22,496 nucleotides of DNA from a candidate division WOR-3 bacterium (GCA_039803745.1 JBDRZD010000032.1:1-22496); one strand, 5' to 3'. Counted from the stretch's first letter, positions 3,444 through 19,475 are shown. Notes: generated by a model not told the origin, from the letters alone. Numbers and translations are program-made.

Positions 3444-3473
3444 ATTATAATAAACGTGGATTAATAAATTCAA
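3444..3473 (-). promoter_or_regulatory. Sigma70-type promoter for dciA-gyrB-GT2
   Basis: Minus strand: TTGAAT (3473-3468), 18-nt spacer, TATAAT (3449-3444). ATG lies 11 nt downstream with no SD. Confidence 0.55.
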
Positions 3474-3481
3474 TCCAGTTT
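3452..3481 (-). terminator. Imperfect hairpin: possible intrinsic terminator of the GT-C gene, or an operator
   Basis: Minus strand AAACTGGATTGA-ATTTA-TTAATCCAC-GTTT, core TGGATT-N9-AATCCA. It spans the GT-C stop codon and the -35/spacer of the dciA promoter, and the U-tract is weak. Confidence 0.25.
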
Positions 3482-5542
3482 TTTAATAATCCAATAACCT
3501 GTTGAAATATGAGCCCCTGTTATAATTATCTCATTTTTACCAATTTTGAGTAAATTTTTAGATAAAGGAATAACAAATTCACTAAAATTCTCTATTTCTT
3601 TTAAATTAAGAACTCCTAAATAATTTCCATTTAAATAGATATGAATTTGTTGAAAGGGAATTTCTATTGAATTTAAAGAAATTTTATTGTAAAATGTTGA
3701 TGAATAAAACAAACTTTTTGCTATTCTGCCAACAAGGTAAATTTTCTCAATTTCCTTTTCTTTTATATAAAAATTGAACTTTTCAAACTTTGAAAATATA
3801 CCCCCTTCAAGAAATTCTTTTCCATTCATTTTTCCTCTAATTGGAAATGGTCTTATCTTTATTAAAGGCTCATATAAAGAAAAAGAGTATTTATGAACTC
3901 TTTCAGATAAAGGATCCCCAACATCTATATAATCTATAACTGTATAAAGTGTTTCTGCATAAATTTTTTTGCCATCTAAAATCTTATTTATCCCAACCTT
4001 GCCTATTTTTACATGATTTCCTGAAATAGTTTGATGATAATAAACTATGCTATCTGCCAAAAACTCAAAATTACTAAACCAAGGAACTTCTTCATCGGTT
4101 GCATCCCAGTAAATATAATATTCTCCATCTTTTTTAAAATAATATTTTAACAATTCAAAGTAATGAGAGGGATAATGAAATTTAGAAAATCTTAAAGCCC
4201 TCCAATTCTCTCCAAAGGAGAATGAATAAATTCTTCTTCCTGTAAAAAATTTTAAAGTGGCTGAACGAAGAGAAATAAATTCACCCTCTCCTATATTATT
4301 TTTAATCCATTTTGAAGCCATGTAATGAGGATATACCTTGTGAATTGTAATAAAAATATTTTTGTTTTCAAAATCTATACTCTGAAATAAAGGTATTAAT
4401 AGATAAAATCCATATAAAATGTATTTGATCCATGGGAAATTTTTAAATTTTTTAACTAAAAAATCAATACCCAGAATTCCTAAAAGAAAAATAAAGGGGA
4501 ATAACCAAACAGTATGACGAAGAAGATGAACTCCTGCAAAAACTGTTAAGCCAGAGATAATCCAGAAGATTAAAAAATTTAAAAAGGAAATAATTATGAA
4601 TTCTTTTGAAGTTTCATTAGAAAATGTCTTTTTATAAAAAATTCCAAAAAAACAAAAAATTAAAAAACAAAAAGGGAGCTGACTTGAATAAAATTCAATA
4701 TTTTTACTTTCCCAAAGGGATGGATAAAAACCTAAAAAAACTCCTAATAAATAATCTCTTAAATATTCTATTAAAGAGGAAAAAACTGCGGGTTTTGAAT
4801 AAACAAAAAATAAAGATTGGGGATAAATTCCTGTAGGCAAAAATGTTCTTGAAATTATAAAATATATAATAGAGGGTATTAACCATATTAAAATGAGAAT
4901 AAAATTATAAATTATAAATTTTTTCTTTTTTCTTATGAAAAAATAAATCAAAAATATTAAAAATATAAATACTGATTCGGGTCGTGAAAGGGCAAGAAAA
5001 ATGCCTGATAAAAAGAAAAAAATTTCTTTTCTTAATAAAAAAAATATGATTGTAAGGTAAAAGAAAAAGGTTAAAAAACTGTGTCCCATTCCAAGGATAA
5101 AAATATACCTAAAAGGCATAAAAAGGGATAGCATAAGAATTGATAAAAAACTTATAAAATTATCATTTGTGGAGATTTTAAATATATAAAAAATAAAAAT
5201 GAGCGTTAAAAATAGAAAAAGCATATTTATTAAAAAAATAAAAGAAGAAAAACCCTCAGGGGTTTTAGTAAAAAACCTGTATACCAAGGAATAGAATATC
5301 TGGGCAAGAAAAGATGGTTCCATTGGTGCAGAGGGTTCATTATCATTAAATTTAAATGGGTATCCTTTTCCCATCTGAACAGAATAACAAAGTGTTACAT
5401 ATGAATCATCTGTAGGGAAAAGGAAAACTCCTCCTGTTTTTGTAACTATAGTGAAATATCTGTATAAGGAGAAAAAACACACTATTAAAAAAATAATTGA
5501 TACTGGAAAATATTTGCTTTTGAAAAAATCTTTTAATTTCAT
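3470..5542 (-). CDS. Polytopic membrane protein, probable GT-C superfamily glycosyltransferase with a C-terminal soluble domain
   Basis: Many hydrophobic segments in roughly the first 390 aa. The first loop carries the acidic pair PTDDSYV...GYPFKFNDNEP (DDxY-type GT-C motif), followed by ALSRPES. The C-terminal region is soluble and beta-rich (DVGDPLSERVHKY; GKNEIIIT). Confidence 0.65.
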   Translation of the reverse strand: MKLKDFFKSKYFPVSIIFLIVCFFSLYRYFTIVTKTGGVFLFPTDDSYVTLCYSVQMGKGYPFKFNDNEPSAPMEPSFLAQIFYSLVYRFFTKTPEGFSSFIFLINMLFLFLTLIFIFYIFKISTNDNFISFLSILMLSLFMPFRYIFILGMGHSFLTFFFYLTIIFFLLRKEIFFFLSGIFLALSRPESVFIFLIFLIYFFIRKKKKFIIYNFILILIWLIPSIIYFIISRTFLPTGIYPQSLFFVYSKPAVFSSLIEYLRDYLLGVFLGFYPSLWESKNIEFYSSQLPFCFLIFCFFGIFYKKTFSNETSKEFIIISFLNFLIFWIISGLTVFAGVHLLRHTVWLFPFIFLLGILGIDFLVKKFKNFPWIKYILYGFYLLIPLFQSIDFENKNIFITIHKVYPHYMASKWIKNNIGEGEFISLRSATLKFFTGRRIYSFSFGENWRALRFSKFHYPSHYFELLKYYFKKDGEYYIYWDATDEEVPWFSNFEFLADSIVYYHQTISGNHVKIGKVGINKILDGKKIYAETLYTVIDYIDVGDPLSERVHKYSFSLYEPLIKIRPFPIRGKMNGKEFLEGGIFSKFEKFNFYIKEKEIEKIYLVGRIAKSLFYSSTFYNKISLNSIEIPFQQIHIYLNGNYLGVLNLKEIENFSEFVIPLSKNLLKIGKNEIIITGAHISTGYWIIKKLD

Positions 5543-5548
5543 ATAAAT

Positions 5549-5578
5549 ATTATAAACAAATTGACTTTTATTTTTCTA
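5549..5578 (-). promoter_or_regulatory. Divergent promoter for the GT-C gene (leaderless)
   Basis: Minus strand TATAAT at 5554-5549, 6 nt before the ATG at 5542. Weak -35 TAGAAA (5578-5573) at 18-nt spacing. Confidence 0.5.
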
Positions 5579-5589
5579 TCCTTTATAAT
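5561..5589 (+). promoter_or_regulatory. Near-consensus sigma70 promoter for the cyclase cluster (leaderless)
   Basis: TTGACT (5561-5566), 17-nt spacer, TATAAT (5584-5589). ATG at 5596 is 6 nt downstream with no SD. Confidence 0.75.
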
Positions 5590-5595
5590 AAAATT

Positions 5596-6210
5596 ATGAA
5601 ATTATGCCTTCGTTGCGGAAAAAGTATTAAAGAAAGTGAAAGGTTTTGTAAATTTTGTGGATTTTATTTTCCATTATTAGATATTGAAAGAAAAAAACTT
5701 GTGGTAATTCATGTTGACATAGAAGGATTCACAAGAATTTCTCATTTACTTGAACCTGAAAATATTGACGAGATATTAAAAAGTATTTTTGGCTCTCTCA
5801 TATTTATTTTGGAATCCAACGGAGTATTCATAAATCAATTTTATGGTGATGAGATTGTAGGACTTTTAGGACTTTCTGGAGTTAAGGAAAATCTTTTAGA
5901 AAAAGCATTAGAAATTGAATCAAAAGTGCATTATTTTTTTAAAAACTATAAAACAAATGAAAATATTATTCCAAAAGTAAAGATTTCAATGGAATATGGG
6001 GAATTGTTTTTAACATTGCATAAAACCGATGGCTCTTCTTATCTTTTAATATGTGGTGAGCCAGAGGAAAGAGCAAAAGAAGGATTAAAATTTATAAAAG
6101 GAGGAGAAACTGCAATAGGAATAAATTTCTTAAATGCCCTTGAAAATAAAATAAAAGTTTTACCAGCAACAGAAAAAAGGAAAGATATATTTATAATTGA
6201 AAGAACTTAA
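5596..6210 (+). CDS. Zinc-ribbon + class III nucleotide cyclase domain; C1-like half (metal-binding Asps only)
   Basis: CxxC-x10-CxxC at C4/C7/C18/C21. HVDIEGFT (D41), FYGDE (D85) and KISMEYG (K129 at the RIG position) are present. The GDTVNxAxR motif is replaced by GEPEERAKE. Confidence 0.82.
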   Translation: MKLCLRCGKSIKESERFCKFCGFYFPLLDIERKKLVVIHVDIEGFTRISHLLEPENIDEILKSIFGSLIFILESNGVFINQFYGDEIVGLLGLSGVKENLLEKALEIESKVHYFFKNYKTNENIIPKVKISMEYGELFLTLHKTDGSSYLLICGEPEERAKEGLKFIKGGETAIGINFLNALENKIKVLPATEKRKDIFIIERT

Positions 6211-6212
6211 AG

Positions 6213-8909
6213 ATGGCAGGTATCGTTGAAATTTCAGAAAAAATTTTAAAGCAAATAGCCCTTGCACTCAATACTGCTAAACTCTATCCACCGGGTCATC
6301 CTCTTTTTGAAAAGATGATTGAAAATTCTCTTGAATTAACACTTGAAATCCCTCCGAATATAAATACACTTTCTTTTTATTTCTTTGAGAATACAGTAAT
6401 AGTTGAAAAAGAAAAACTTGATATCTCAAAATTTCCAGCAATTCAATCTTTAATAAAATATTTAGACAGAATAAGGGTTAAAAGTATATCAATAGATATA
6501 GATGCCCAGAGAAAGGATTGGGAAGCCTTTTATAAAATGCTTTCTACTCCTGTAAAAGAATTAAAGGAAACAGAAGATATTGCAGTTTTATTACATGAAC
6601 TTGGAGCAGAGAAAATAAGGGTTAATGATGTTGAATTTGGTGTAATTTCAGCAAAGCAAAAAGTTGAAATAAAATTTGATATTGATAGTATTATTGAGAG
6701 AATAAAAAAAGGAGAAATAATATCATCTGAAGAATCTATTGAACTTTTTAAAGAAACAACAGGTTTTGCTCCAGAAAGGTTAAATTATATTTCAAAAGAT
6801 GGAGTGTTAGAGAAAATTCAAGAATTTAAAGAAAATATATACAAAAAATATGGATTTATCGAGCCAGAAAAATTATCCATAGCAATTGCTGAAATATTTG
6901 AAAAACTTTCACCAGATTTAAGGAGAGATGTTTTGGGTGATATGATAGAAATTGAAGAATTAAGGAATATAGCAAAAGAAATTATAAAGAATTTAAATGA
7001 AGAAGAAATAATGGAATTTTTATTATCTTATAAAGGAAATAAAGAAGAGATAATGGAATATCTTCCCGAAAATAAAAAGCAAAAATTACAAAGTTTATCT
7101 ATTTTAAGAGAAAAGAAAGAAGAACCCGGTGCAAAGATAGGTATTTTTTATGGAGAAGGAATTTTATCAAAGGAAATGGAAGAAAGAATTTTAAAACTCT
7201 ATGAAACTATAAAGATTGAGAAAGAAGAAAATAAAATAAAAGAAGAAGTTTCTAAATTTTTGAATGAACTTCTTGGTATAAAAGATTATCAAGATATTAA
7301 AGAAAAAGTTCCTGAATTTGTAAATTCTTTAAAAATGATTGCTTCCTTTTTAATAGAACAATATGGTGCAGATGCTTTTGAGGAATTTTCCCTCCTTGGT
7401 TCTCATATACTATCTCTTCTAACTCCTGATATTAAGAATAACATATATGAGCATCTTTCAAAAACTAAAGAAACTGCTGATATGATAAGAAGTATACTTC
7501 CCAGTTTACCTGACGAGGAACTAATAACCCTTTTTGCATCAAGAATAAAAAATTTCCCTGAAGAGGTTAATGAGATGGTAAAGGTCTTACCTTCAGAAAA
7601 AATAGAAATTTTAAGGAAAAGGGAAATAATTGAAGGTGGAGAGGGAAGACCATTTGTTCCTTCAAGGAAATTGATTGAAATAGAAAAAATAGCAAGAGAA
7701 AGGCACCTTATAATTACAGGAGAAAAGAAGTTTGAAGCAATGAAAAAGGAAATTGAAGAAGGCATTAGAACTGCTGAATTAGAAAATATAATTGAACCAT
7801 TTCTAAAGGATATTAAATCAGAGGATAATGAAAAAAGAAAAAATTCTGTTAATGGGATAGGAAGCCTTTTAATCTCTTTTTTAAAGACAGGCAAAACAAA
7901 ACTTGCAAAAACATTATTAAATTTTTTAAGGGAAAATATTGAAGGTGAAGAAGATTTAGAAGTATTTTTTACCTATCTTGAATATTTTGAGAAAGGATAT
8001 GTAATTGCAAAAGAAAAAAACATTGTTGATATTATTGAAATATTTGAGGTTGAATTTAAAAAATTACTTGATTTAAAAGAAAAAAGAAAATTTGTAATAA
8101 ACGCTCTTGGAAAAACAAAAACCGATTTTGCATTAAGAATGTTATTAACAACTTTATGGGAAGAAGAAAGTATAGAAGAAATTAAAGAGGCATTAATTCC
8201 CCTTGGAGAAAAAGCTCTCGAGTGGCTCCTTAAACTCTTCCCCGAGGTAGAGAATCTTCTTATAAGAAAAAGAATAATTGAACTCCTTATTTTACTTCCG
8301 CAAACAAATATACATAGTTTAAAAGAACTAATCTTTGATAAAAGAAAGTCTGTTCAGAGAGATATTTTATACATTGTTGGAGAAAAGAAAATATCAGAGA
8401 TGGTTCCTTATATAGAAGAAATTCTTCCTGTTTCGGAGGACATTGTAAGAAAAGAAGCAATAAAGGCACTTGTTAAGATAAAAACAAAAGAAGCAAAGGA
8501 AATACTGATTAAATCTCTTGAAGATAAAAATGAAGAAATAAGAAAGGAGGTAATAAAGGGGCTGTGTGCTGATATGGATGAAAAAATAGTTCCAAGATTA
8601 AGGGATTATTTTAAATTTTATATGGAAAAAAATGTTGAGGAAAACACTCCGCTATTAATTGAAATAATGAAAGGTTTAAAAAAGATTAAGAATAAAGAAA
8701 TACTTCCATTTTTATTTAAAATAATTGAAGAAAAAAATATATTAAAAAAACCAAAATATCCACAAGAATTAAGAAGAGAAGCAATAAAATATTTAGTTGA
8801 ATTTAAAGAAGATAAAAATGTTATTGAAAAATTAAAAAGTTATAAAAATGATCCTGACAATGAAATAAGAATATTCTTAAAGGTATTTTTATCAAAATAT
8901 GGAGAATAG
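6213..8909 (+). CDS. HEAT-repeat protein with an N-terminal LYPxxHP domain and an internal duplicated helical domain
   Basis: C-terminal HEAT-like units (DKRKSVQRDILYIVG, SEDIVRKEAIKALVK, DKNEEIRKEVIKGL, DPDNEIR). N-terminal TAKLYPPGHP. 171-aa-offset internal repeat. No TM segment evident. Confidence 0.75.
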   Translation: MAGIVEISEKILKQIALALNTAKLYPPGHPLFEKMIENSLELTLEIPPNINTLSFYFFENTVIVEKEKLDISKFPAIQSLIKYLDRIRVKSISIDIDAQRKDWEAFYKMLSTPVKELKETEDIAVLLHELGAEKIRVNDVEFGVISAKQKVEIKFDIDSIIERIKKGEIISSEESIELFKETTGFAPERLNYISKDGVLEKIQEFKENIYKKYGFIEPEKLSIAIAEIFEKLSPDLRRDVLGDMIEIEELRNIAKEIIKNLNEEEIMEFLLSYKGNKEEIMEYLPENKKQKLQSLSILREKKEEPGAKIGIFYGEGILSKEMEERILKLYETIKIEKEENKIKEEVSKFLNELLGIKDYQDIKEKVPEFVNSLKMIASFLIEQYGADAFEEFSLLGSHILSLLTPDIKNNIYEHLSKTKETADMIRSILPSLPDEELITLFASRIKNFPEEVNEMVKVLPSEKIEILRKREIIEGGEGRPFVPSRKLIEIEKIARERHLIITGEKKFEAMKKEIEEGIRTAELENIIEPFLKDIKSEDNEKRKNSVNGIGSLLISFLKTGKTKLAKTLLNFLRENIEGEEDLEVFFTYLEYFEKGYVIAKEKNIVDIIEIFEVEFKKLLDLKEKRKFVINALGKTKTDFALRMLLTTLWEEESIEEIKEALIPLGEKALEWLLKLFPEVENLLIRKRIIELLILLPQTNIHSLKELIFDKRKSVQRDILYIVGEKKISEMVPYIEEILPVSEDIVRKEAIKALVKIKTKEAKEILIKSLEDKNEEIRKEVIKGLCADMDEKIVPRLRDYFKFYMEKNVEENTPLLIEIMKGLKKIKNKEILPFLFKIIEEKNILKKPKYPQELRREAIKYLVEFKEDKNVIEKLKSYKNDPDNEIRIFLKVFLSKYGE

Positions 8910-11907
8910 AAAAGTTTGTTTTAAATGTTTTGCTTATATTCCTGAAGATGCTCTATATTGTCCCTCCTGTGGAGTAAATTTAATTTCTGAAGAAAAAGAA
9001 GCAAAAGGAGAGGGTGAAAAAAAATTTATAACTTGCTTATTCATCTTAATAGAAAAGCCGGAATATGAAATGTTTGATGAAAAAAAATTTAAAGAAAGGA
9101 TTGAAGTGCTTTATGAAATAAATAAGATGAGCAAGGAATTCGGTGGCTGGATTGATAAATGGATCGGCTTAAATGGCTTAATGATAATTTTTGGAATTCC
9201 GAGAGCAAAAAGTATGGATGCAGAAATTGCTTGTAAACTCGCTTTAGAAGTAGAAAAATATTTAAAAGAAAAAAAATTAAATTATAGAATAGGAATAAAT
9301 TCGGGATGGGTTTATTTCGGACAGATTGGTCCGGGTAATTACCTTCATACAACTGTTATAGGAGATACTGTAAATATAGCCTATAGATTAGCAGAAATAT
9401 CAAATTCTGAAATAATAATTTCTGAAGATACAAATTCCCTTGTTGAAGAAAGATTTCACACAATAAAAAAGAAAAAGATGTTTTTAAAGGGAAGGGGGGA
9501 GATTATTTCAATATACGAGTTAAAGGGTATAAGGGAAAAGCCAAAAGAGATGCATTTTAGAATACCATTTACTGGTAGAGAAGAAGAACTCAAAATTCTT
9601 AATTCATATAAGGAACTTGCAAGAAAGAGAAAGGGAAATGTACTTTTTATAAAAGGTGAACCAGGTATTGGAAAGACAACACTTAAAAATTACTGGCTTA
9701 AAATATTTGAAGGAAAGGAAGATTTTTTTATATTTGAAGGAGAACCTCTCTTTGAAATTTATGGAAGTCCTATAGGAACAATTCAAAAAGCGATAACAAA
9801 ATTTATAGAAAAAGAAAAAAATATTCAAAGTATTAAAGATTATGAGGAAATAAAGGAAATACTATTTGAAATAGAAATCAGGGAAAAATTTGAACCTTTT
9901 TCTTATATTGAACTTTTAAAATTAAGATTGAGAAAATTTTTAGAATCTCTTTTAGAAATAAAACCAATTATATTTATAGTTGATTCTTGTGAAAAAATTG
10001 ATGAGATAACAAAAATTATTCTGGAGTATCTAATTACCACTTTAAATCATAAAATATTTTTCCTTTTACTGGGAAGGGAGAATCCTTTTGGGAGAGAACT
10101 TCTTTTTATAAAAGAAAAAGAACTTTTACCTTTTGACTATAGAGAGATAAATGATATATTAAGAAAATTTCTGAAAGAAGATTTAAGCACTGATTTTGTT
10201 AAAAAATTTATAGAGATAACCGAGGGCATACCACTTTATGTTACAGAATTTTTAAAGATCCTGTCAAGAAAAAAAAGTAAATCCCTTGAGATTCCCGGAA
10301 CTTTAATAAGTACTATTTTAGAATTTTATGATATATTAACAAAAGAAGAAAGGGAAGTGCTTGAAAAGATGAGCGTATTGATAGAGTGGGATGAAGAAGG
10401 CGAATTAAAAGACTTTTTCAACGAAGAGGAAAAAAATATAATTAAAAACTTTGTAGAGGAGGAAATACTTGAAAAAGAAGGAAATATTTATAAATTTGTA
10501 AACCCACTTATAAGAAATGTAATTTATAATGCAATCCTAAAAAAGAAAAAGTTAAAGATCCATTCAGATGTTATAAATATACTTGATAGTAAAATAGATT
10601 TAAATAAATTATCTTCTTATCTTTTTTATCATTCCTATAATGGAGAATTATGGGAAAAGGCATTTGAATTTGCATTAATTTCAGGAAAAGATAGATTTGC
10701 ATCTGGTGCATTTAAGGAAAGCATAGATTATTTAAATAAAGGAGAGGAATGCTTCCAGAAAATTAAAGAAAAAAATTTTGTAAAACTAAGCGAAGTCTTT
10801 GAATACAAAGCAGAAGCAAAAAAGAATTTAGGTCTTATAGAAGAGGCAATAAAAGATCTGCATAAAAGTATAGTAATGGTAGAAGGAACCGATGATATTA
10901 AGCTATTTTCGTTGAAACAAAAACTTGCTGAAACTTATCTTGAAAAAAATGAAATAGAACCCTGCAAGAAAATAATTACTGAAATTTTAAATATAAAAGA
11001 AAAAATTAAAGATGAAATTATTTTTTCAACTCATCTTACCCTTGGCAAACTTTATTTTAATTTAGGGAAATTTCATCTTTCCCTGGCAGAATACAATAAG
11101 GCATATAACATTATGAAAAATTTAAATGAAAAAAGAATTTATAAAATAGCTCTAACTCTTTCAGAACTTCACAAAGAGGTAGGGAATTTTGAAATGGCAG
11201 AAGAATATATAAATATAGCCGAAGGAAATGTTAAAGAATATAAAGATATATTATATGAGTTCAAGATAATGGAAAATAAATTTGATTTGTATATTAAAAC
11301 AGGCAATTTTATTAAAATAAAAGAAGAGGTAAATAAAATTATAGGTATGGCTAAATTTATAGAAAACAATTATTATTACTTTGTGTTTTTAGCATTAAAG
11401 GCACTTTTATTTTCCTATTTAAAAGATGAAAAAGAAGCGAAAAAGATTGTTCAAGAATTGTTACCAATATGGACAAATTTTGGAAGCGCCTTTAAATCTT
11501 TATTAAACTTATCTAAGGCAATGTATTTAACAGGGGAAAGAGAAGCCCTTTTAAAAATATTAAGAGAACTGTATAAAATCCATGAAAAACTCCATCCCTT
11601 CCTGTTTGTGGAGTTAAATCTTTTGCTTGCAAAAATCCAGGAAACAGAATCAGAAAAATACCTTGAAAGGGCATGGGAAATTGCAAAGGAAATAACATCA
11701 CCCTATTTACATCTTCTTGTTTTTTTAACTTTTACAGAAGTATATAATAAAATTGGTAATAAGGAAAAGGCAAAGATTTATTATAGAAAAGCAGACTATA
11801 TGTTAAAAGAGTTATCTGAAAAAATAAAAAGACCGGATCTTAAAAGATATTTCTTACTACACCCTGATTTTGACATTTTGAGAACCGCACATTTTCTTCT
11901 TTCTTGA
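8899..11907 (+). CDS. Zinc-ribbon + class III cyclase (C2-like half) + STAND P-loop NTPase + TPR-like repeats
   Basis: CxxC-x10-CxxC, then GGWIDKWIG, RIGINSG, TTVIGDTVNIAYRL and LKGRG. NTPase motifs FTGREEEL, Walker A GEPGIGKT (9655-9678), Walker B-like IIFIVD, TEGIPLYV and FVNPLIR. Helical TPR-like C-terminus. Confidence 0.9.
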   Translation: MENRKVCFKCFAYIPEDALYCPSCGVNLISEEKEAKGEGEKKFITCLFILIEKPEYEMFDEKKFKERIEVLYEINKMSKEFGGWIDKWIGLNGLMIIFGIPRAKSMDAEIACKLALEVEKYLKEKKLNYRIGINSGWVYFGQIGPGNYLHTTVIGDTVNIAYRLAEISNSEIIISEDTNSLVEERFHTIKKKKMFLKGRGEIISIYELKGIREKPKEMHFRIPFTGREEELKILNSYKELARKRKGNVLFIKGEPGIGKTTLKNYWLKIFEGKEDFFIFEGEPLFEIYGSPIGTIQKAITKFIEKEKNIQSIKDYEEIKEILFEIEIREKFEPFSYIELLKLRLRKFLESLLEIKPIIFIVDSCEKIDEITKIILEYLITTLNHKIFFLLLGRENPFGRELLFIKEKELLPFDYREINDILRKFLKEDLSTDFVKKFIEITEGIPLYVTEFLKILSRKKSKSLEIPGTLISTILEFYDILTKEEREVLEKMSVLIEWDEEGELKDFFNEEEKNIIKNFVEEEILEKEGNIYKFVNPLIRNVIYNAILKKKKLKIHSDVINILDSKIDLNKLSSYLFYHSYNGELWEKAFEFALISGKDRFASGAFKESIDYLNKGEECFQKIKEKNFVKLSEVFEYKAEAKKNLGLIEEAIKDLHKSIVMVEGTDDIKLFSLKQKLAETYLEKNEIEPCKKIITEILNIKEKIKDEIIFSTHLTLGKLYFNLGKFHLSLAEYNKAYNIMKNLNEKRIYKIALTLSELHKEVGNFEMAEEYINIAEGNVKEYKDILYEFKIMENKFDLYIKTGNFIKIKEEVNKIIGMAKFIENNYYYFVFLALKALLFSYLKDEKEAKKIVQELLPIWTNFGSAFKSLLNLSKAMYLTGEREALLKILRELYKIHEKLHPFLFVELNLLLAKIQETESEKYLERAWEIAKEITSPYLHLLVFLTFTEVYNKIGNKEKAKIYYRKADYMLKELSEKIKRPDLKRYFLLHPDFDILRTAHFLLS

Positions 11908-11936
11908 TTGACTTTTTATTTATTTTATCATAAAAT
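11908..11936 (+). promoter_or_regulatory. Internal sigma70 promoter for the cheW-to-roadblock sub-operon
   Basis: TTGACT (11908-11913), 17-nt spacer, TAAAAT (11931-11936), lying in the only real gap of the cluster. ATG at 11947 is 10 nt downstream with no SD. Confidence 0.7.
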
Positions 11937-11946
11937 TTTAAATTTA

Positions 11947-12372
11947 ATGTTTGAATTACTTATATGTAAAATTAGAAATTTAAAGATAGGGATAGAAGTG
12001 AATAAAATAATTGAGATTGTGGAATCAAAAGAAATAACAAATTTACCTCCAATTTTTAAGACATTAAAAGGAATGTTTAATTTAAGAGGAGATATTTTAC
12101 CTTTTCTTGATATTGGAGAAATTTTATTTAAAGAAAAAAGGGAAGGAAAATTTAACTATTTTGTCATAGTTGAATCAGAAAAGGGGAAAATAGGAATTGG
12201 AATTGATGAAGTAATAGAAAATATTAAAACTGATACAATTCCTTCAAAAAGCGCACCCGGGAAAATTCTTTCAGAAGTTGAAAAAAATTTTTTAAAAGGT
12301 GTTTTAGAAAAAAAAGAAGAAATAATTTATATAATAGATGTAAATAAATTGATTGAAAGGGAGGATATATGA
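11947..12372 (+). CDS. cheW: CheW scaffold protein
   Basis: IGIEVNKIIEIV, ITNLP, GMFNLRGDILPFLD, GIGIDEV, FLKGV and IIDVNKL. Start revised to ATG 11947, because the track's TTG at 11908 is the -35 box. Confidence 0.92.
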   Translation: MFELLICKIRNLKIGIEVNKIIEIVESKEITNLPPIFKTLKGMFNLRGDILPFLDIGEILFKEKREGKFNYFVIVESEKGKIGIGIDEVIENIKTDTIPSKSAPGKILSEVEKNFLKGVLEKKEEIIYIIDVNKLIEREDI

Positions 12373-12734
12373 ATCCAAGGGTTTTGATTGTGGATGATGC
12401 AAGATTTATGAGAAAACTCTTAGGTGATATACTCAAAAGAGGAGGATATGAAATATGTGGAGAGGCAGCAACAGGAGCAGAAGCAATAAAACTTTATAAG
12501 GAGTTAAAACCTGACATTGTGACAATGGATATAATAATGCCCGATATGAGTGGAATAGATGCAGTGAGAGAAATACTCAAAATTGACCCGAATGCAAAAA
12601 TACTCATGGTTTCAGCAATGGGTCAGCAAGCCCTTGTTCTTGAATCATTACAAGCAGGTGCTAAGGATTATATTGTAAAACCTTTCCAACCTATGAGGGT
12701 ATTGGAAGCTGTTGAAAGAATTTTGAAAAAATGA
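12369..12734 (+). CDS. cheY: CheY response regulator (Bacillus/Thermotoga-like)
   Basis: VLIVDDARFMR, PDIVTMDIIMP (phospho-acceptor Asp), MVSAMGQ and KPF. GGAGG SD and an ATGA overlap with cheW. Confidence 0.95.
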   Translation: MNPRVLIVDDARFMRKLLGDILKRGGYEICGEAATGAEAIKLYKELKPDIVTMDIIMPDMSGIDAVREILKIDPNAKILMVSAMGQQALVLESLQAGAKDYIVKPFQPMRVLEAVERILKK

Positions 12735-14479
12735 AAGAACTTAAAGAATATAAAGAACTTTTTAAATCAGAAGTAAAAGAAATCATAGAAAAATGTGAAG
12801 AAATTATATTAAAGATTGAAAAAGAGGGCATTAAAAGAGAATTTATAGATGAACTATTTCGTTATTTTCATACCATTAAAGGCTCTGCTGCTTCTGTTGG
12901 TGAGGAAGAAATAGAAAAAATTTCTCATCGTCTTGAAGATATGCTTGATAAAATAAGAAAAGAGGGAAAAAAGCAAATCGAAATTGAAGAAATTTTAAAA
13001 AGTATAGATAAAATAAAAAAATTACTAAAAGAAAAAATCCAGAAATATGAAATTGAAATTTATCTTTCACCTGAAACTCCTTTAAAAGGAGCAAGAGCCT
13101 TTGTTATATTGGAAAGATTGAAGGAAAAATTTAGAATTTTAAAGGTGGAACCAGATATTGAAGAGATAAAACAGGATAAATTTGATTTTTCCTTTAAAGT
13201 GGAATTAGAAATAGAAGAACAAAATGTAGAAGAGTTAAAAGAGATTTTAAATCTCTATTCAGAAATAGAACATTATAAAATTTTAGAAGTTAAAGAAAAA
13301 GAAATTATAAAAAAAATTAAAGAAGAAGAAATTACTGAAATAAAAATAAAATCTGAAGTTATTGACAGAATTATTAATTATATGGGTGAAGTGCTTATAG
13401 AAAGGGATAAATTGAAAAAAATAATTTCTGAAAAAGGTGAAAAGGAAATAAAAGAAGAATTTGACTCTTTTGAAAGGTTATTAGCATCTATTCAGGATGA
13501 AATTGTGAGTTTAAGATTAATACCTGTAAAAGTAATTCTTTCAGGATTACCAAGATATGTAAGGGATGAGTCTAAAAAACTGGGTAAGGAAATTGAAATT
13601 GAAATTGAAGGAGAGGAAATTGAGGTTGATAGAATTTTATTAGAAAAGTTAAAAGACCCAATAATTCACCTTGTGAGAAATTCTATTGACCATGGCATTG
13701 AAAAACCCGAGGAAAGAATTAAAAACGGTAAGAAAAGGGTTGGGAAAATATCAATAAGTATTAAAAAAGATAGGGGGATAGTTTTTATAAGTGTTAAAGA
13801 TGACGGTGAAGGAATAAATAGAGAAAAGGTGGTTAAAAGGGCTCTTGAATTAGGTATTATAAAAGAAGAAGAAACTTCATCAATAAGTGATGAGAAGATT
13901 GTTGAAATCTTAACAAATCCTCTTTTTTCAACAAAAAAAGATGTAACTTCTCTTTCAGGAAGAGGAGTTGGTTTAAACGTGGTTAAAGAAACACTTCTTA
14001 AAATAGGTGGTGATTTAAAAATAAACTTTGAGGAAAAAAAGGGAACAGAGGTTATTTTAAGAATCCCTGTTTCTCTTGCTATTATAAAAGCTGTTATAGT
14101 TGAAAGTGGTGAAGAGAAATATGTTTTACCTTTAAATTATGTTACAGGAATTTATAATGTTAAAAATATAAAAATCTTTACACTCCAAGGGAAAAAATTC
14201 ACAATAATAAACAAAAAAATTTATCCAGTTTATGAATTTGATTATTTTATAGGAGTAAAAAATAATGGTAAAGAATGCAAAGAGGGAATTGCAGTGGAAG
14301 GGGAAGATATAAGCTTTGTGCTCCTTATAAGCAGGGTAATTTCCGAGCAGGATGTTTTTGTTAAAAACCTTAATGAAATTTTTATGAGAATCCCCTTTAT
14401 TACAGGGGGAACAATTTTGGGAGATGGTAAGCCTTATTTCATAATAGATCCAATTTCACTTATTAAAAAGGGAGGATAA
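12731..14479 (+). CDS. cheA: CheA histidine kinase (P1-P2-P3-P4-P5)
   Basis: Hpt FRYFHTIKGSA (H47), P2 YEIEIYLSPETPLKGARA, HLVRNSIDHGIE, DDGEG, FST...SGRGVGL and a C-terminal CheW-like P5 (GGTILGDG). Confidence 0.96.
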   Translation: MKELKEYKELFKSEVKEIIEKCEEIILKIEKEGIKREFIDELFRYFHTIKGSAASVGEEEIEKISHRLEDMLDKIRKEGKKQIEIEEILKSIDKIKKLLKEKIQKYEIEIYLSPETPLKGARAFVILERLKEKFRILKVEPDIEEIKQDKFDFSFKVELEIEEQNVEELKEILNLYSEIEHYKILEVKEKEIIKKIKEEEITEIKIKSEVIDRIINYMGEVLIERDKLKKIISEKGEKEIKEEFDSFERLLASIQDEIVSLRLIPVKVILSGLPRYVRDESKKLGKEIEIEIEGEEIEVDRILLEKLKDPIIHLVRNSIDHGIEKPEERIKNGKKRVGKISISIKKDRGIVFISVKDDGEGINREKVVKRALELGIIKEEETSSISDEKIVEILTNPLFSTKKDVTSLSGRGVGLNVVKETLLKIGGDLKINFEEKKGTEVILRIPVSLAIIKAVIVESGEEKYVLPLNYVTGIYNVKNIKIFTLQGKKFTIINKKIYPVYEFDYFIGVKNNGKECKEGIAVEGEDISFVLLISRVISEQDVFVKNLNEIFMRIPFITGGTILGDGKPYFIIDPISLIKKGG

Positions 14480-15090
14480 TGAAATTAAAGGATTTGAGCC
14501 CATTTTATATTGATGGAATAAAAGAAGTGGCAAATATAGGAGCAGGTCATGCTGCAACTTCCTTATCTCAACTGATTAAAAGGAAAATATTTATGCATCC
14601 ACCGGATGTTTTCATAGGTAAATCAGAAGAAGTATTTAACCAAATAATGGACAAAAACTATCTTGCCATAGGTGTGTTACAGTATTTCTTAGGTGATTTA
14701 ACAGGATTAACACTTTTATTAATGGAAAATGAAGAAGCAAAAAAATTCCTTTCTTTGATGATGGAAGAAGATATCAGGGAAATAGGAGAAAATGAAGAAT
14801 CTGCTTTAAAGGAAATAACAAATATAGTAACAGGTTCTTACATGACTTCCTTATCTGAATTCCTGAATCTTTTAGCCCTGCCATCTGTCCCATTTCTTAA
14901 AATTGACATGACAAAGGCAATTGTCACATCTGCTCTTTTAAGTATAGAGTATTATGAAGAATTCGCTATATGTATAAAAAGTACATTCTTTGTAGAGAAC
15001 GGACCAAAAATTACATTTAACTTCTTCTTCCTGCCTGATGAAAGTGGAATAATAGTTTTAACAAATAGACTTCAGGAAATGATAGAATGA
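14479..15090 (+). CDS. cheC: CheC CheY-P phosphatase
   Basis: Two intact (D/S)-x3-E-x2-N-x22-P motifs: D12/E16/N19/P42 and S108/E112/N115/P138. GGAGG SD and a TAATG overlap. Confidence 0.93.
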   Translation: MKLKDLSPFYIDGIKEVANIGAGHAATSLSQLIKRKIFMHPPDVFIGKSEEVFNQIMDKNYLAIGVLQYFLGDLTGLTLLLMENEEAKKFLSLMMEEDIREIGENEESALKEITNIVTGSYMTSLSEFLNLLALPSVPFLKIDMTKAIVTSALLSIEYYEEFAICIKSTFFVENGPKITFNFFFLPDESGIIVLTNRLQEMIE

Positions 15091-17534
15091 ATATAAAAGA
15101 AGAAGAAATTAAAATACTTAAAAAATTTGGAGAAAAAATAGACCCAAAGGATCCTTCTTCTCATAATAATCTTGCAATCGTTTTCTTTAATAGAGGTCTT
15201 GTAGAAGATGCTGTTTCGGAATTAAAAAAGGCTCTTGAAATAAACCCCGATTTCAAGATTGCCCAGAGAAATTTAATAATAATTTTAAAAAGAACAGGTA
15301 AAATAGAAGATTATATTGAAAAACCTTTAAGGGAAGTAATGCAGGATCCGGAAAATATAGAAATAAGAATAAGGCTTGCTGAAGCATATTTCCATATAGG
15401 CAAGTACACTGAGGCAATGACTGAATATAAAAATGTAATAACAAAAGATCCAAATAATATAAAAGCATTAAAGGGACTTGGTACTGTCAAGAAAAAAATG
15501 GGGCTATTGCAGGAAGCCCTTGCTACCTTTAAAAGAGCCTACAAAATAAATCCAGAAGATGAGGAAGTATTAAGGAGCATGGGTGAAATATATTACAATA
15601 TGGGATTATATGAAATGGCAATAAAATATTTGAAAAATGCAATAAAAGTAAATCCTGAGTCAGCAGAAGCACATCTTTTTCTCTCCTTTGCATTAGGTGA
15701 AATGGGGTTAATAGAAGAGGCACTTGATGAAGCAATAAAAGCAAAAGAGTTGAATCCATATATTGCAGATATAAAAGAATTAATAGAAATTGAAGATGAA
15801 AAAATATCTGCAGAGGAAGAACTTAAAGAGGCAATGGGAATAAAAATAAGGGAGAAAATACTCACATTTAAATCAAGGCTTGAAATGGCACAGGTTTATA
15901 AAAATAAACTTCTGTTAAAAGATGCATTGAGGGAATTAAATAAGGCTCTGGAAGAACAGCCCCTTGAAAGAGAGGCACTAAAACTTAAAGCAGAAATAGA
16001 AATTATTGAAGGGGATTATGATGAAGCCCTTAATACTCTTGATAAAATAAGTCCAAAGGATTTTCACACATGGAATATGACAGCCTGTGTTTTGCTTTTA
16101 AAGGGTTTTAAAGAGAGGGCTAAAAAAATATGGGAAAACATACTAAATTATCCTTATGCTCTTAATAACTATGCCCTCCTTTTTATACCCGATAAACAGG
16201 AAGAAGCAGAAGCGCTTCTAAAAAGGGCATACGAAATGGAAGAAGGCTTTCTGATACCTCTTTATAACCTCTCTTTTTTAAAAATGATGCAGGGTAAAAA
16301 AGAAGAGGCGGAAAAAAATCTTGCAGAGTTAACTGAACTTTATTATACAGATCCTGTAATAATTTATAATTATGCAAAAATATTAATTGAAAAAGAAAAA
16401 CTATCAGAGGCAGAAAAAATGGTAAAAAATGCTCTTGAAGTTTTCCCTGATAATTTTTTACTCATATCTTCTATTAAAAAAATCTATTCAATTAAGGGTG
16501 AAGAAGAAAAGATTCAAGAAATGGAAAATATAAAACCTAAAAAAATAGAAAAGGGTGAAGTGTTCTTACTTGCCATAGCGGGTTCCCCAAGAGGAATTCC
16601 TTATTCCCCAGAAAGAGTAATTAAGAAAGAAGAAATAAAGGATTTAAAAATAAAAATTGAAAGAGCAAAAAAATATATAGAAGAAAATAATTATGAAGAA
16701 GCCCAAAAAATAATAGAAGAAGCAAAAAAAATTTATCCTGAAGATTTTGAAGTGAATTATCTTCTTGGTGAAATGTATTATAAATTAGGATTCTATGAGG
16801 CTGCAGAAAATATCTTTATAACTTTAAGAAAAAAAACTTTTGATCCAAGGATAGTGCTAAAACTTGCAGAGATATATATAAAAATAGGAAGACTAAGAGA
16901 GGCTGAAAGGGAATTGGAAGAGATAAAAGAAGAAGGAATTTTTTATTACGAAAAGATGAACCTGTTATCAGAAATAAAAGAAAAAAAGGGAGAATATATA
17001 GAGGCTCTTAAAATAATAAGTAAACTTTTTGAGTTTAAAAAAGATGATACAAAGGTTTTGCTTAAATTTGGTAAATTACTGTTAAAAACAAGGAGGTTTG
17101 AAGATGCAAAAAAAACTTTTTTAAAAATTTTAGAAAAAGAACCTTTTAACAAGATAGCAGAATATTACCTCGCAAAAGTATACTTACATACAAATGAGAT
17201 TGATAAAGCAAAAGAATTGTGCGAACAATTATTGGTAAGGGAAAAAGAAAATCCCTATGCTTTTCTTTTAAAAGCCGAAATATTAATAAAAGAAGGAAAA
17301 TATAAAGAGGCGATACCCTATTTAGAGAATTCAATAAAAATAAACTTCTGGCTACCACTTGCCCATTATTATATAGGAATTGTATATGCATTAGAAGGCA
17401 GACATGAAGAAGCAATTTACCACTGGGAAAAAGTGATAAAAATGGAACCAAATACAAAAATAGGAAAGAAGGCAGGAGAATACATTAAAACAACACTTAG
17501 TTTTTTAAACCTTTTAAAAAAGGATATAGAATAA
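15087..17534 (+). CDS. Large multi-TPR protein (815 aa)
   Basis: Repeated TPR consensus throughout (HNNLAIVFFNRGLVEDAVSELKKALEINP; MGEIYYNMGLYEMAIKYLKNAIKVNP; AHYYIGIVYALEGRHEEAIYHWEKVIKMEP). No signal peptide seen. Confidence 0.92.
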   Translation: MNIKEEEIKILKKFGEKIDPKDPSSHNNLAIVFFNRGLVEDAVSELKKALEINPDFKIAQRNLIIILKRTGKIEDYIEKPLREVMQDPENIEIRIRLAEAYFHIGKYTEAMTEYKNVITKDPNNIKALKGLGTVKKKMGLLQEALATFKRAYKINPEDEEVLRSMGEIYYNMGLYEMAIKYLKNAIKVNPESAEAHLFLSFALGEMGLIEEALDEAIKAKELNPYIADIKELIEIEDEKISAEEELKEAMGIKIREKILTFKSRLEMAQVYKNKLLLKDALRELNKALEEQPLEREALKLKAEIEIIEGDYDEALNTLDKISPKDFHTWNMTACVLLLKGFKERAKKIWENILNYPYALNNYALLFIPDKQEEAEALLKRAYEMEEGFLIPLYNLSFLKMMQGKKEEAEKNLAELTELYYTDPVIIYNYAKILIEKEKLSEAEKMVKNALEVFPDNFLLISSIKKIYSIKGEEEKIQEMENIKPKKIEKGEVFLLAIAGSPRGIPYSPERVIKKEEIKDLKIKIERAKKYIEENNYEEAQKIIEEAKKIYPEDFEVNYLLGEMYYKLGFYEAAENIFITLRKKTFDPRIVLKLAEIYIKIGRLREAERELEEIKEEGIFYYEKMNLLSEIKEKKGEYIEALKIISKLFEFKKDDTKVLLKFGKLLLKTRRFEDAKKTFLKILEKEPFNKIAEYYLAKVYLHTNEIDKAKELCEQLLVREKENPYAFLLKAEILIKEGKYKEAIPYLENSIKINFWLPLAHYYIGIVYALEGRHEEAIYHWEKVIKMEPNTKIGKKAGEYIKTTLSFLNLLKKDIE

Positions 17535-18652
17535 TGCCAATTCAGGGAAATTTAAAGGAACTTTCAATTGCTGACTTCCTTCAACTTCTATACATGAACA
17601 AAAAATCTGGAATAGTGGAAATACAGGGGGATGGCGAACATTTTAAAATATTTCTTAGAAATGGAAATATTAAATTTATAGAAGATTTAAACAGAAATCT
17701 TTTGATAAGTGAAATAAAAAAAACAGGGATTCTAAACCCTCAAATAGAAAAAATTCTTGATTCCATTGAAAAGGAAGAAAAGGTTCTTGAAATAATTTTG
17801 AAAGAAAATTTAAACAAAGAAATACTTAAAAAGTTAATAATGAAACTTGCTCTGGATAGAATGTTTTATATTTTACAACTCAAAGAGGGAAATTTTACAT
17901 TTACTGAAATAGAAGAACAAAAAATCCTTGAAACAGATTTAGAGTTTTCCACCCAGGACTTCATTCTTGAAAGTTCAAGAAAAATAGATGAATGGTCTGA
18001 AATCACAAAGAAAATACCTGATTTTTCCTTTGTTCCTTCACTTTCAGATGAGTGGCTAAAAAGGGAAAATGAAACTTTGAGTCTTGATGCCCTCGAATGG
18101 AAAATCCTTTCATTAATTGATGGAAATAGAAATATTTCAGAAATAATTTCCCTCTCAAAAGAAAGCGCTTTAAAAGTGGCAAGAAAGATATGCGATCTTA
18201 TTGAAAGGGGAATTTTAAAGATAAAAGAAGTGAAAAAATTTGAAGAAGAAGTAAAGAAAAAGAAAGCACAGGAATTTTTCATAAAAGCAAGGGAATTTGC
18301 TAAAAATGGACAGTATTTAGAAGCAGAAACCTTTCTTTTAAGAGCACTCTCTTTGAATCCTGATTTTCTTATGGCACATCTTGCTTTAGGAGATATCTAT
18401 TATATCCAGAAAAAGTATAGACTTGCTGCTCAAGAGTATTATGAAGTAATGAAAAGAGACCCGGATAATCCTCTTAGTTATTATGGACTTGCATTTGTTA
18501 GAATAAAACTTGGAGATATACTCGGAGCAATCCAGATAATAGAAAAAGGTTTAAAAAATGCTACAGGAAAGATGAAAGAGGAAATGGAAAATATGATTTC
18601 GATTTTAAGAAAACTGGTTCTTATGACTGATACAAAAAGGAGTATATTCTGA
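17534..18652 (+). CDS. DUF4388 (PATAN-like) + winged-helix-like + TPR protein
   Basis: N-terminal IQGNLKELSIADFLQLLYMNKKSGIVEI...FLRNGNI, EGNFTF and SRKIDEW. Then LDALEWKILSLIDGNRNISEI (wHTH-like) and three TPRs. Confidence 0.88.
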   Translation: MPIQGNLKELSIADFLQLLYMNKKSGIVEIQGDGEHFKIFLRNGNIKFIEDLNRNLLISEIKKTGILNPQIEKILDSIEKEEKVLEIILKENLNKEILKKLIMKLALDRMFYILQLKEGNFTFTEIEEQKILETDLEFSTQDFILESSRKIDEWSEITKKIPDFSFVPSLSDEWLKRENETLSLDALEWKILSLIDGNRNISEIISLSKESALKVARKICDLIERGILKIKEVKKFEEEVKKKKAQEFFIKAREFAKNGQYLEAETFLLRALSLNPDFLMAHLALGDIYYIQKKYRLAAQEYYEVMKRDPDNPLSYYGLAFVRIKLGDILGAIQIIEKGLKNATGKMKEEMENMISILRKLVLMTDTKRSIF

Positions 18653-19170
18653 TGGAAGAAAAACTCGTTTATGATCCAAAATCCACTTTAATTTTAGACC
18701 TTGTTGAAGAATACATAAATCATTATCTCTATGAAGAAGCCGAAACACTATTGAAAGATTATTTAAAGGATGCACCTCTAAGTAAAAGAGCAATTGAACT
18801 CTGGATGAAAATTGCAGAAGGAAAAGGGGAAATTGAGAAATACAAAAAACTTAAAGAGAAGTTTGAAAAATTAGAAAAAATATATCTTGAAGAAAAAATA
18901 AAAATAAAGGAAAAGGAATTCTTGAAAGAGAGAAAAGAGGTGGAAGAGATAAGAGAGATACAGGAATTCCCTCTCAAGGAGATGGAAGAGTTATTTGAGA
19001 GTTTCTTAAAGGGACTAAAACTCGGGAAAGCAAAAAAAATAATAATAGAGGATAAAAATATTTTTCTATACATTAAAAAGAACGGAAAATGGACAGAAAT
19101 AAAATTCAAAGAAAGCACAAAATTTCCAGAAGCAACATGGATAATGAAAAGTCTTGAAAAAATAAAATGA
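18652..19170 (+). CDS. Hypothetical protein: TPR-like N-terminus, charged linker, degenerate roadblock-like C-terminus
   Basis: LVEEYINHYLYEEAETLLKDYLKDAP is TPR-like. GLKLGKAKKIIIEDKNIFLY resembles the LGxxxxhhhE strand of roadblock/LC7. Coupled by TGATG and ATGA overlaps. Confidence 0.55.
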   Translation: MEEKLVYDPKSTLILDLVEEYINHYLYEEAETLLKDYLKDAPLSKRAIELWMKIAEGKGEIEKYKKLKEKFEKLEKIYLEEKIKIKEKEFLKERKEVEEIREIQEFPLKEMEELFESFLKGLKLGKAKKIIIEDKNIFLYIKKNGKWTEIKFKESTKFPEATWIMKSLEKIK

Positions 19171-19475
19171 ACAAATTTAGTGAGATTGAAAAAATAATTA
19201 AAATCCCTGGGATAAGGGGAGTTTATATTTTTGATGAAAAGGGGAAAGAAATTTACAGAGAATCAACATTTTCAAAAGATAAAGAATATTATAAAGAATT
19301 TATTGACTTTATTATAAAAAATAAGGAAAAACTACCAAAAATTTTTTACATATTTACAGAAACACACCTTATAATTATTGCTCATAATGAAAAAATTTTT
19401 TTATCAATATCTTTTAAGGAAATAAATCTGGGACTCTTAAGAATCCATATGAAAAAATTTTTAAATATTGACTGA
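19167..19475 (+). CDS. Roadblock/LC7 (MglB/MglC-like) protein
   Basis: IIKIPGIRGVYIFDEKGKEI at the N-terminus and EINLGLLRIHMKK at the C-terminus are typical roadblock signatures. 102 aa. Confidence 0.72.
   Translation: MNKFSEIEKIIKIPGIRGVYIFDEKGKEIYRESTFSKDKEYYKEFIDFIIKNKEKLPKIFYIFTETHLIIIAHNEKIFLSISFKEINLGLLRIHMKKFLNID

Follow-up and report, generated by a model that had tools for sequence, protein, structure and literature searches.

The 22,496-nt stretch of DNA analysed here, hereafter the window (GCA_039803745.1, JBDRZD010000032.1:1-22496), is contig C32 of a metagenome-assembled genome of an uncultured hot-spring bacterium of candidate division WOR-3 (1.67 Mb, 93% complete, 24–34% G+C). 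Between positions 5596 and 11907 it carries three genes in a tight row, here called S, H and L, with 2 nt between S and H, an 11-nt overlap of H and L and no nucleotide between L and the following CheW gene (Table 1). Each of the two class III cyclase domains encoded by S and L lacks the catalytic residues that the other retains. This pattern and its conservation, together with the linkage of the two genes, their joint loss and a predicted interface, suggest that S pairs head-to-tail with the N-terminal cyclase domain of L in an obligate heterodimer that has a single catalytic site, a reading drawn from sequence and structural models to which we assign a probability of about 0.7.

Table 1. Features of the S-H-L locus (positions in the window; aa, amino acids)
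Feature	Position (nt)	Strand	Description
Promoter-like site	5561–5589	+	TTGACT-17-TATAAT, 11/12; consensus match only, very AT-rich DNA
S	5596–6210	+	204 aa; zinc ribbon and C1-like class III cyclase domain
Zinc ribbon of S	5605–5658	+	C4, C7, C18, C21; Pfam Zn_Ribbon_1 21.5 bits, below the cut-off of 25
D41 codon (5716–5718) to D85 codon (5848–5850) of S	5716–5850	+	DIEGFT and GDE motifs; invariant in 15/15 S orthologues
H	6213–8909	+	898 aa; conserved N-terminal domain with YPxGHP motif, C-terminal HEAT repeats
L	8899–11907	+	1002 aa; zinc ribbon, C2-like class III cyclase, STAND-type P-loop ATPase (AAA_16), TPR repeats
Zinc ribbon of L	8917–8970	+	C7, C10, C21, C24; Cys columns at least 90% kept in 12 orthologues
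Cyclase domain of L	9022–9543	+	about aa 42–215
AAA_16/STAND ATPase region of L	9565–10050	+	Pfam AAA_16 42.5 bits
Walker A of L	9655–9678	+	GEPGIGKT, aa 253–260
TPR region of L	10903–11547	+	aa 669–883; Pfam TPR_12 42.3 bits, weak TPR_MalT match
Downstream genes	11908–19475	+	CheW, CheY, CheA, CheC/CheX, 815-aa TPR protein, DUF4388-TPR, two small unknown open reading frames

A preliminary description of this DNA had reported both cyclase reading frames and a reciprocal loss of catalytic residues. The two frames are present as described, counting on the translations gave the same residues and nucleotide positions (Table 2), and alignment of both domains to class III cyclases reproduced the residue equivalences. 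In alignments to CyaB (3r5g), Cya2 (2w01) and C10, a canonical paralogue from the same genome, D41 and D85 of S fall on the two metal-binding Asp and K129 on the position of the phosphate-binding Arg. The C2-type residues are absent from S, with Q81 at the Lys, L151 at the Thr, E158 at the Asn and E162 at the Arg; the phmmer search of the PDB likewise aligned residues 28–96 of S to CyaB and Cya2 with Q81 at the Lys/Glu position. L is the complement: K87, T152, N159, R163 and K197 fall on the Lys, Thr, Asn, Arg and Lys in the same three alignments, and both metal Asp are missing, L50 and N92 standing in their place, with no DxxGFT motif and with the GD motif reading G-L-N by a one-residue insertion. 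The best solved match of L was again CyaB (3r5g), aligned to residues 70–209. Over the same eight positions the catalytic signature reads D-K-D-R-T-N-R-K in C10, D-Q-D-K-L-E-E-I in S and L-K-N-R-T-N-R-K in L. The full catalytic set (two metal Asp, Lys and Thr, Asn, Arg) is complete only across S and L, and in neither alone.

Table 2. Catalytic positions in S and L of the window (first nucleotide of the codon in brackets) and in their orthologues
Position	S	L	15 S orthologues	12 L orthologues
First metal Asp	D41 (5716)	L50	Asp 15/15	Asp 0/12 (Glu once)
Purine Lys	Q81	K87 (9157)	Q 11, R 3, K 1	K 8, R 3, T 1
Second metal Asp	D85 (5848)	N92	Asp 15/15	Asp 0/12 (Glu three times)
Phosphate Arg	K129 (5980)	R	K, R or H 15/15	Arg 6, Lys 1, G/T/S 5
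Purine Thr	L151	T152 (9352)	Thr 0/15	Thr 12/12
Transition-state Asn	E158	N159 (9373)	Asn 1/15	Asn 12/12
Transition-state Arg	E162	R163 (9385)	Arg 0/15	Arg 12/12
Lys before Gly	I	K197-G198 (9487)	K 6; other residue or gap 9	K or R 12/12

The split is maintained among orthologues. In the sets compared, 15 orthologues of S (20–67% identity) and 12 of L, both metal Asp are invariant in S and absent from L, and the Thr, Asn and Arg are invariant in L and almost entirely absent from S. Only 14 columns are invariant in the S alignment (first sequence 204 aa), and these include D41, F45, T46, G84, D85 and E86; among the only 16 invariant columns of the L alignment (first sequence 260 aa) are T152, N159, R163 and G198. 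The residues of the mirror-image site drift freely among orthologues, unlike those of the composite site.

The profile of the S family matched solved cyclases at 8e-28. The AlphaFold model of S (predicted local distance difference test, pLDDT, 86.8) retrieved whole class III catalytic domains at the top of the Foldseek results (E about 1e-13, 180–195 aligned columns, template modelling scores, TM, of 0.66–0.76), with a TM of 0.75 against VC1 (1cjk_A). As modelled, S carries the complete cyclase-homology fold. The four Cys of its zinc ribbon are invariant in the 15 orthologues. A word-based homologue search had retrieved only 7 close relatives of S, and its orthologues are entered in databases as hypothetical proteins of 'candidate division WOR-3'. 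The Glu that follows the second metal Asp (G84-D85-E86, nt 5845–5853) is also invariant in 15/15 S orthologues, which read GDE where canonical paralogues have GDC, GDA or GDG; phmmer also gave weak matches between S and GGDEF diguanylate cyclases (4urg, E 0.009), for which the GDE motif may be the cause.

The Pfam class III cyclase model (PF00211) matched L with 44.9 bits against a cut-off of 21.9, over the C-terminal two thirds of the model. Judged from its domains, L has the layout of a STAND NTPase, in which a P-loop domain is followed by a repeat sensor. Its Lys/Thr purine pair would place it in subclass IIIb, which Linder and Schultz reportedly defined in 2003 by a Thr replacing the substrate-defining Asp.

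A first set of S orthologues with the same neighbours had come from 41 related genomes, and a pattern search of genome contigs with H as the query, using narrow patterns, returned 2 loci only. The linkage was then counted in 272 genomes of the phylum WOR-3/Hydrothermae. An S orthologue (profile match of at least 192 bits in a frame of 207–267 aa) was found in 56 of these, the next matches, at 160 bits or less, being paralogues inside proteins of 1000–1200 aa. The L profile gave 56 matches in 55 genomes at 225 bits or more, with paralogues at 212 bits or less, and the H family was present in 106 genomes. In 54 of the 56 S-bearing genomes H is the next gene after S; in the two exceptions (G008 and G129) the H matches are on other contigs, and S of G008 stands at a contig end. 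L was found on the contig of S, on the same strand and within 4 kb, in 47 of the 56. The order in these 47 genomes is L-S-H in 41, S-H-L in 5 and L-S without H on the contig in 1; the window has the order S-H-L, seen also in G004, G005, G007 and G009, and the commonest order in the phylum is L-S-H.

The other nine S-bearing genomes include assembly breaks. L is cut by the contig start in G226 and lies on another contig in G127, G157 and G008; in G148 the L-type match is on the opposite strand at a distance of about 13 kb, and a masked stretch lies just upstream of S, and for G155, G136, G138 and G225 an L orthologue was not among the matches listed. A candidate case of L without S (G147) was rejected, a 100-N scaffold gap lying at the 3' end of its L gene.

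Two relatives have lost both cyclase genes and kept H. The contig G010:C154 (locus L071, 9000–16009) is collinear with positions 4976–15435 of the window at 85–88% nucleotide identity, except for two clean deletions, by which S has lost its interior (5657–6197 in the window) and L likewise (8940–11843), the first codons of each being left; its H and Che genes are intact. This contig probably comes from a contaminating close relative, because the G010 assembly has 8% contamination and an H-L pair of its own, of the S-H-L type, on contig C52. In G006 (95% complete), H stands alone at the site that holds S-H-L in its congeners G005, G007 and G009, between the same neighbouring genes, and S and L matches are at paralogue level only. 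The two joint losses with H retained argue that S and L come and go together and that H can persist without them.

When 42 cyclase domains were placed in a tree, L formed one clade (support 95/93), nested among canonical paralogues with a zinc ribbon, cyclase, AAA and TPR layout, the Rv0386-type architecture. S fell on the other side of the tree, with the long-branch protein C63 unresolved among its sequences, and the lineages in the S and L subtrees appear in matching order. C63 (G000:C63:5544–6020, from the genome of the window) is a 559-aa C1-like cyclase fused to TPR without a zinc ribbon, which keeps both metal Asp, has Ser for the Lys and has lost the Thr, Asn and Arg; similar frames of 559–580 aa occur in G005, G009 and G010. 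A second tree of 53 rows, built by a quick method, placed S on one side of a branch (support 96) and again recovered the L clade (96). Since the clades are well supported and the orders of the subtrees match, the sequences indicate that the S and L types each had a single origin, older than the split of the phylum into its families, and were then inherited together.

Cyclase domains with a similar division of residues occur also within single chains. The S profile, run against 1.84 billion representatives, matched 99,655 proteins with E values of 0.001 or less, and 48 of the best 150 matches contain at least two cyclase domains in a single chain. These tandem proteins are metagenomic, about 1300–1600 aa long, with the cyclases followed by AAA and TPR; P0012, P0019, P0043 and P0057 have a clean C1/C2 split within the chain, P0018 has a zinc ribbon before each cyclase domain, and two of the tandem proteins are named 'class 3 adenylate cyclase/TPR repeat protein' in their source. 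Twelve of the 48 were placed in the 53-row tree. They were considered as S-L fusions of the Rosetta stone kind and rejected as such: in three lineages the paired domains are each other's closest relatives, so that the tandem forms appear to be independent duplications and convergent fused analogues of S-L.

Profile searches of the PDB separated the two proteins in the same sense, S matching best on C1-type halves and L on C2-type halves of solved cyclases. In ADCY10 the S profile matched 42–190 and the L profile 279–469 (1e-24); the corresponding spans are 464–575 and 1069–1251 in AC5, 413–519 and 1066–1174 in AC8, and 388–541 and 1139–1237 in AC9. VC1 was matched at 5e-14 by S and at 1.8e-8 by L, IIC2 at 1.1e-7 by L and not among the S matches at E up to 0.01. 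In soluble guanylyl cyclase (sGC), S preferred alpha (2e-11; beta 3e-6) and L preferred beta (6e-13; alpha 2e-6).

The complex was modelled from S 27–204, L 38–218, ATP and 2 Mg, with user-supplied alignments. It scored 0.69, against 0.12 for the best of 3 controls, in the only pairing modelled, so that the value is no ranking over other pairings. The mark that it passes, which 116 of 157 solved complexes attain and only 2 of 215 mismatched pairs, is a rough one here, having been calibrated without ligands or user alignments. The S-L runs agree in at least 90% of contacts, with a pLDDT of at least 84 for the partner and of 86–87 for non-partner chains. In the modelled interface, S 44–47 (GFT) and 81–84 lie against L 87–91, 150–159 and 196–199, which are the catalytic elements. 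The modelled arrangement is head-to-tail, the Asp face of S and the Lys/Thr/Asn/Arg/Lys face of L building the predicted site.

In such a heterodimer S would be the C1-type subunit, whose D41 and D85 would bind both metal ions and whose K129 takes the place of the phosphate-binding Arg, and L the C2-type subunit, in which K87 and T152 would read the adenine, N159 would position the ribose and R163 and K197 would steady the phosphates and the transition state. Cyclic AMP (cAMP) would be the most likely product. The mirror-image second site, made of Q81, L151, E158 and E162 of S with L50 and N92 of L, would be dead, and neither homodimer should be able to be active. The enzyme would thus exist only once S docks on L, and this docking may be gated by the STAND ATPase and TPR part of L and probably by H too. 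That a mixed dimer of this kind can be active is indicated by Guo et al., who in 2001 reportedly found that Asp and Asn/Arg mutants of Rv1625c complement each other.

The heterodimer reading had been put forward in the preliminary description, which had proposed to examine it by co-occurrence of orthologous pairs, by conservation of the complementary residues and by a model of the heterodimer. It is supported by the residue pattern, which the 15 S and 12 L orthologues keep, by the linkage within 4 kb in 47 of 56 genomes, by the joint losses and by the predicted interface, the model having passed its controls. A number of observations weigh on the other side. The PF00211 model matches S with 17.3 bits, below the cut-off of 21.9, and over its N-terminal half only, and K129 stands where canonical cyclases carry Arg. 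The complementarity is less clean in another family, four L orthologues of which carry an Asp one residue away from the second metal position. None of S, H and L was found in the same-genus genome G001 (93% complete), and the S-L pair, lost twice in other relatives, is dispensable. The pass of the complex model may reflect likeness to many solved class III dimers, and not S-L binding. Finally, C10 (1116 aa) retains all eight catalytic residues; C63 may be an alternative partner for L, and either C10 or C63 could pair with S or L.

The last point leads to a reading in which S and L are not mutual partners and act as half-dead subunits that tune other cyclases or make them asymmetric, S with C10 and L with C63. 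The presence of both these proteins in the same genome, and of many paralogues in each of these bacteria, speaks for it; a partner elsewhere in the genome would predict neither linkage nor joint loss, and the S and L genes stand close together in 47 of 56 genomes, under two gene orders, have been lost jointly twice and have matching subtrees. We hold it to be rather unlikely, and it does not exclude an S-L pairing alongside. Quite unlikely, in our estimate, is that S and L, with H, form a non-catalytic nucleotide sensor or scaffold, whose composite site would bind ATP or another nucleotide and whose output would pass through the STAND and TPR parts. The Lys that replaces the phosphate Arg, the unusual invariant GDE of S and the STAND and TPR modules, typical of signalling hubs, would fit such a role. 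However, the residues that are invariant in the composite site (both Asp, the Asn and the Arg) are those needed for chemistry and not just for binding, the residues of the mirror site drift freely, and the genome has receptors for cyclic nucleotide monophosphates (cNMP). Accidental decay of two redundant paralogues heading for loss, to which the dispensability of the pair in some relatives (G001, G006, G010:C154) might point, is contradicted by the conservation data and appears very improbable: no orthologue examined, even at 20% identity, has a broken frame in either gene, the 14 invariant columns of S and the 16 of L take in the catalytic residues, and the pattern is kept in both gene orders and in many families of the phylum. 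The earlier argument that so clean a complementarity is unlike random decay is borne out by the place of the catalytic residues among these few invariant columns.

Building on the heterodimer, we tentatively consider, as a scheme that is doubtful as a whole, a signal-gated split cyclase in which H is a HEAT adaptor that delivers or withholds S, co-transcription with the Che genes couples a chemosensory phosphorelay to cAMP, and the bacterial C1/C2 split arose once as a pair and at least three times in fused form.

Among known enzymes, full-length soluble adenylyl cyclase (sACfl, ADCY10) comes closest in architecture; in it, C1 and C2 are followed by a predicted STAND/P-loop region (PMC12802110; here and below, citations refer to the available parts of the papers). 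Both systems combine an Asp-bearing with a Lys/Thr/Asn/Arg-bearing domain, have the Lys/Thr pair and place a STAND module after the C2-type domain. Unlike in sACfl, C1 and C2 are here separate genes that both encode a zinc ribbon, and S has a HEAT-repeat gene beside it. The position of L as sister to canonical bacterial paralogues of the homodimer type argues, at the level of sequence, for an origin of S/L independent of soluble adenylyl cyclase. C1 and C2 of mammalian membrane adenylyl cyclases (1azs, 1cjk) divide the residues in the same way, into one active and one degenerate site; unlike S and L, these halves are fused in one membrane protein regulated by G proteins. Mammalian membrane adenylyl cyclases carry Asp instead of Thr at the second purine position. 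The alpha and beta chains of sGC and the chytrid RGC/NeoR proteins resemble S/L in that two gene products make one catalytic site, and differ in being eukaryotic, in using GTP and in having other sensor domains. Heterodimers are described for the eukaryotic sGC in PMC6005667 and for the RGC/NeoR rhodopsin cyclases in PMC8815786 and PMC12264004.

Within bacteria, the canonical proteins with zinc ribbon, cyclase, AAA and TPR, such as C10 (G000:C10), share the architecture of L but keep all eight residues and therefore can form two sites as homodimers. The tandem two-cyclase proteins belong to the S/L superfamily and show the same C1/C2 degeneracy, but are fused, some with two zinc ribbons. The available part of Schultz 2022 (PMC9552081) describes bacterial class III cyclases as monomers that homodimerise and a fused dimeric bacterial form as unknown. 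The heterodimeric cyclases found in print are eukaryotic, and the literature search found no natural two-gene bacterial class III heterodimer; Shenoy et al. 2004 (PMC2447327), which by the search index contains 'heterodimer' three times and treats Rv0891c and the adjacent mycobacterial genes Rv1358 and Rv1359, and the body of which it did not cover, may bear on novelty. New in the present analysis are the conservation of the split, the alternative S-H-L order, the counts across the phylum, both joint losses, the origin of each subunit in one event, the linkage to the Che genes and the independence of the tandem forms.

The asymmetric single-site design of cyclases has so far been treated as a eukaryotic invention. 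If the S-L heterodimer is real, this design evolved also in bacteria, as against the symmetric homodimers of the textbook, and the assembly of the subunits may itself be a regulated step. The pair would further offer a simple, thermostable and separable model for questions on soluble adenylyl cyclase, such as the role of the STAND region and the purpose of the dead second site.

For the H protein, Pfam gave HEAT repeats only, NCBIfam weak HEAT-type matches far below the cut-offs and ESM Atlas only unnamed clusters (best score 0.90). The model of aa 1–330 (window 6213–7202) has a pLDDT of 80.7, and Foldseek returned no match for it in the PDB at E up to 0.001. In the wide VIA-align comparison, aa 172–300 scored highest against the MgtE N-domain (Z 7.7, 98 residues, root mean square deviation 3.5), a weak resemblance in the range common for helical repeats, and reached a Z of about 5–6 against FliG; FliG_C had no match in the 93%-complete genome. 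The N-terminal alpha/beta part (aa 1–140), with the invariant residues Y25, P26, H29 and P30, showed no recognised fold in a limited comparison. Full-length homologues of H, of about 860–950 aa and with an AYPGEHP motif, were observed at loci L044–L058 of family f35 (e.g. G240:C13 and G232:C38) with no cyclase gene beside them. As these H homologues stand without an adjoining cyclase gene, the H family appears to have a life of its own.

The genes from 11908 to 19475 follow L with no or tiny gaps and probably belong to the S-H-L operon. The promoter-like site before S (Table 1), the best of the region, ends 7 nt 5' of the S start codon, and the same bases are kept in the related contig G010:C154; matches of this kind by consensus numbered 103, against 69 expected. 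Should transcription indeed start from this site, the mRNA of the operon would have no leader or hardly any. A consensus scan found no terminator-like site on the plus strand between 5596 and 19200. The same Che genes come after the triad only in the family of the window, in the window's genome, G004 and G010:C154, and do not follow it in G005, G007 and G009. The Che-like row has no methyl-accepting chemotaxis protein (MCP), CheB or CheR, and two MCPs are encoded elsewhere; in the whole genome, 4 cNMP-binding proteins and 2 MCPs were above the cut-off.

The flanks of the locus are of housekeeping type, with gyrB, dciA and a family 2 glycosyltransferase gene on one side and rtcA, a radical SAM gene and tgt on the other. 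In metagenome contigs, apparent joints with short sides (20–28 letters, likeness threshold 85) were set aside as likely spurious in AT-rich sequence. Near-identical contigs with the whole of S and the whole of L are present in hot-spring metagenome runs of independent studies; these contigs are DNA, and no RNA run was among the public runs listed for the sequence. Divergently from S, on the minus strand at 3470–5542, lies a gene for a 690-aa polytopic membrane protein without a Pfam match, which is also present in G010:C154, next to H.

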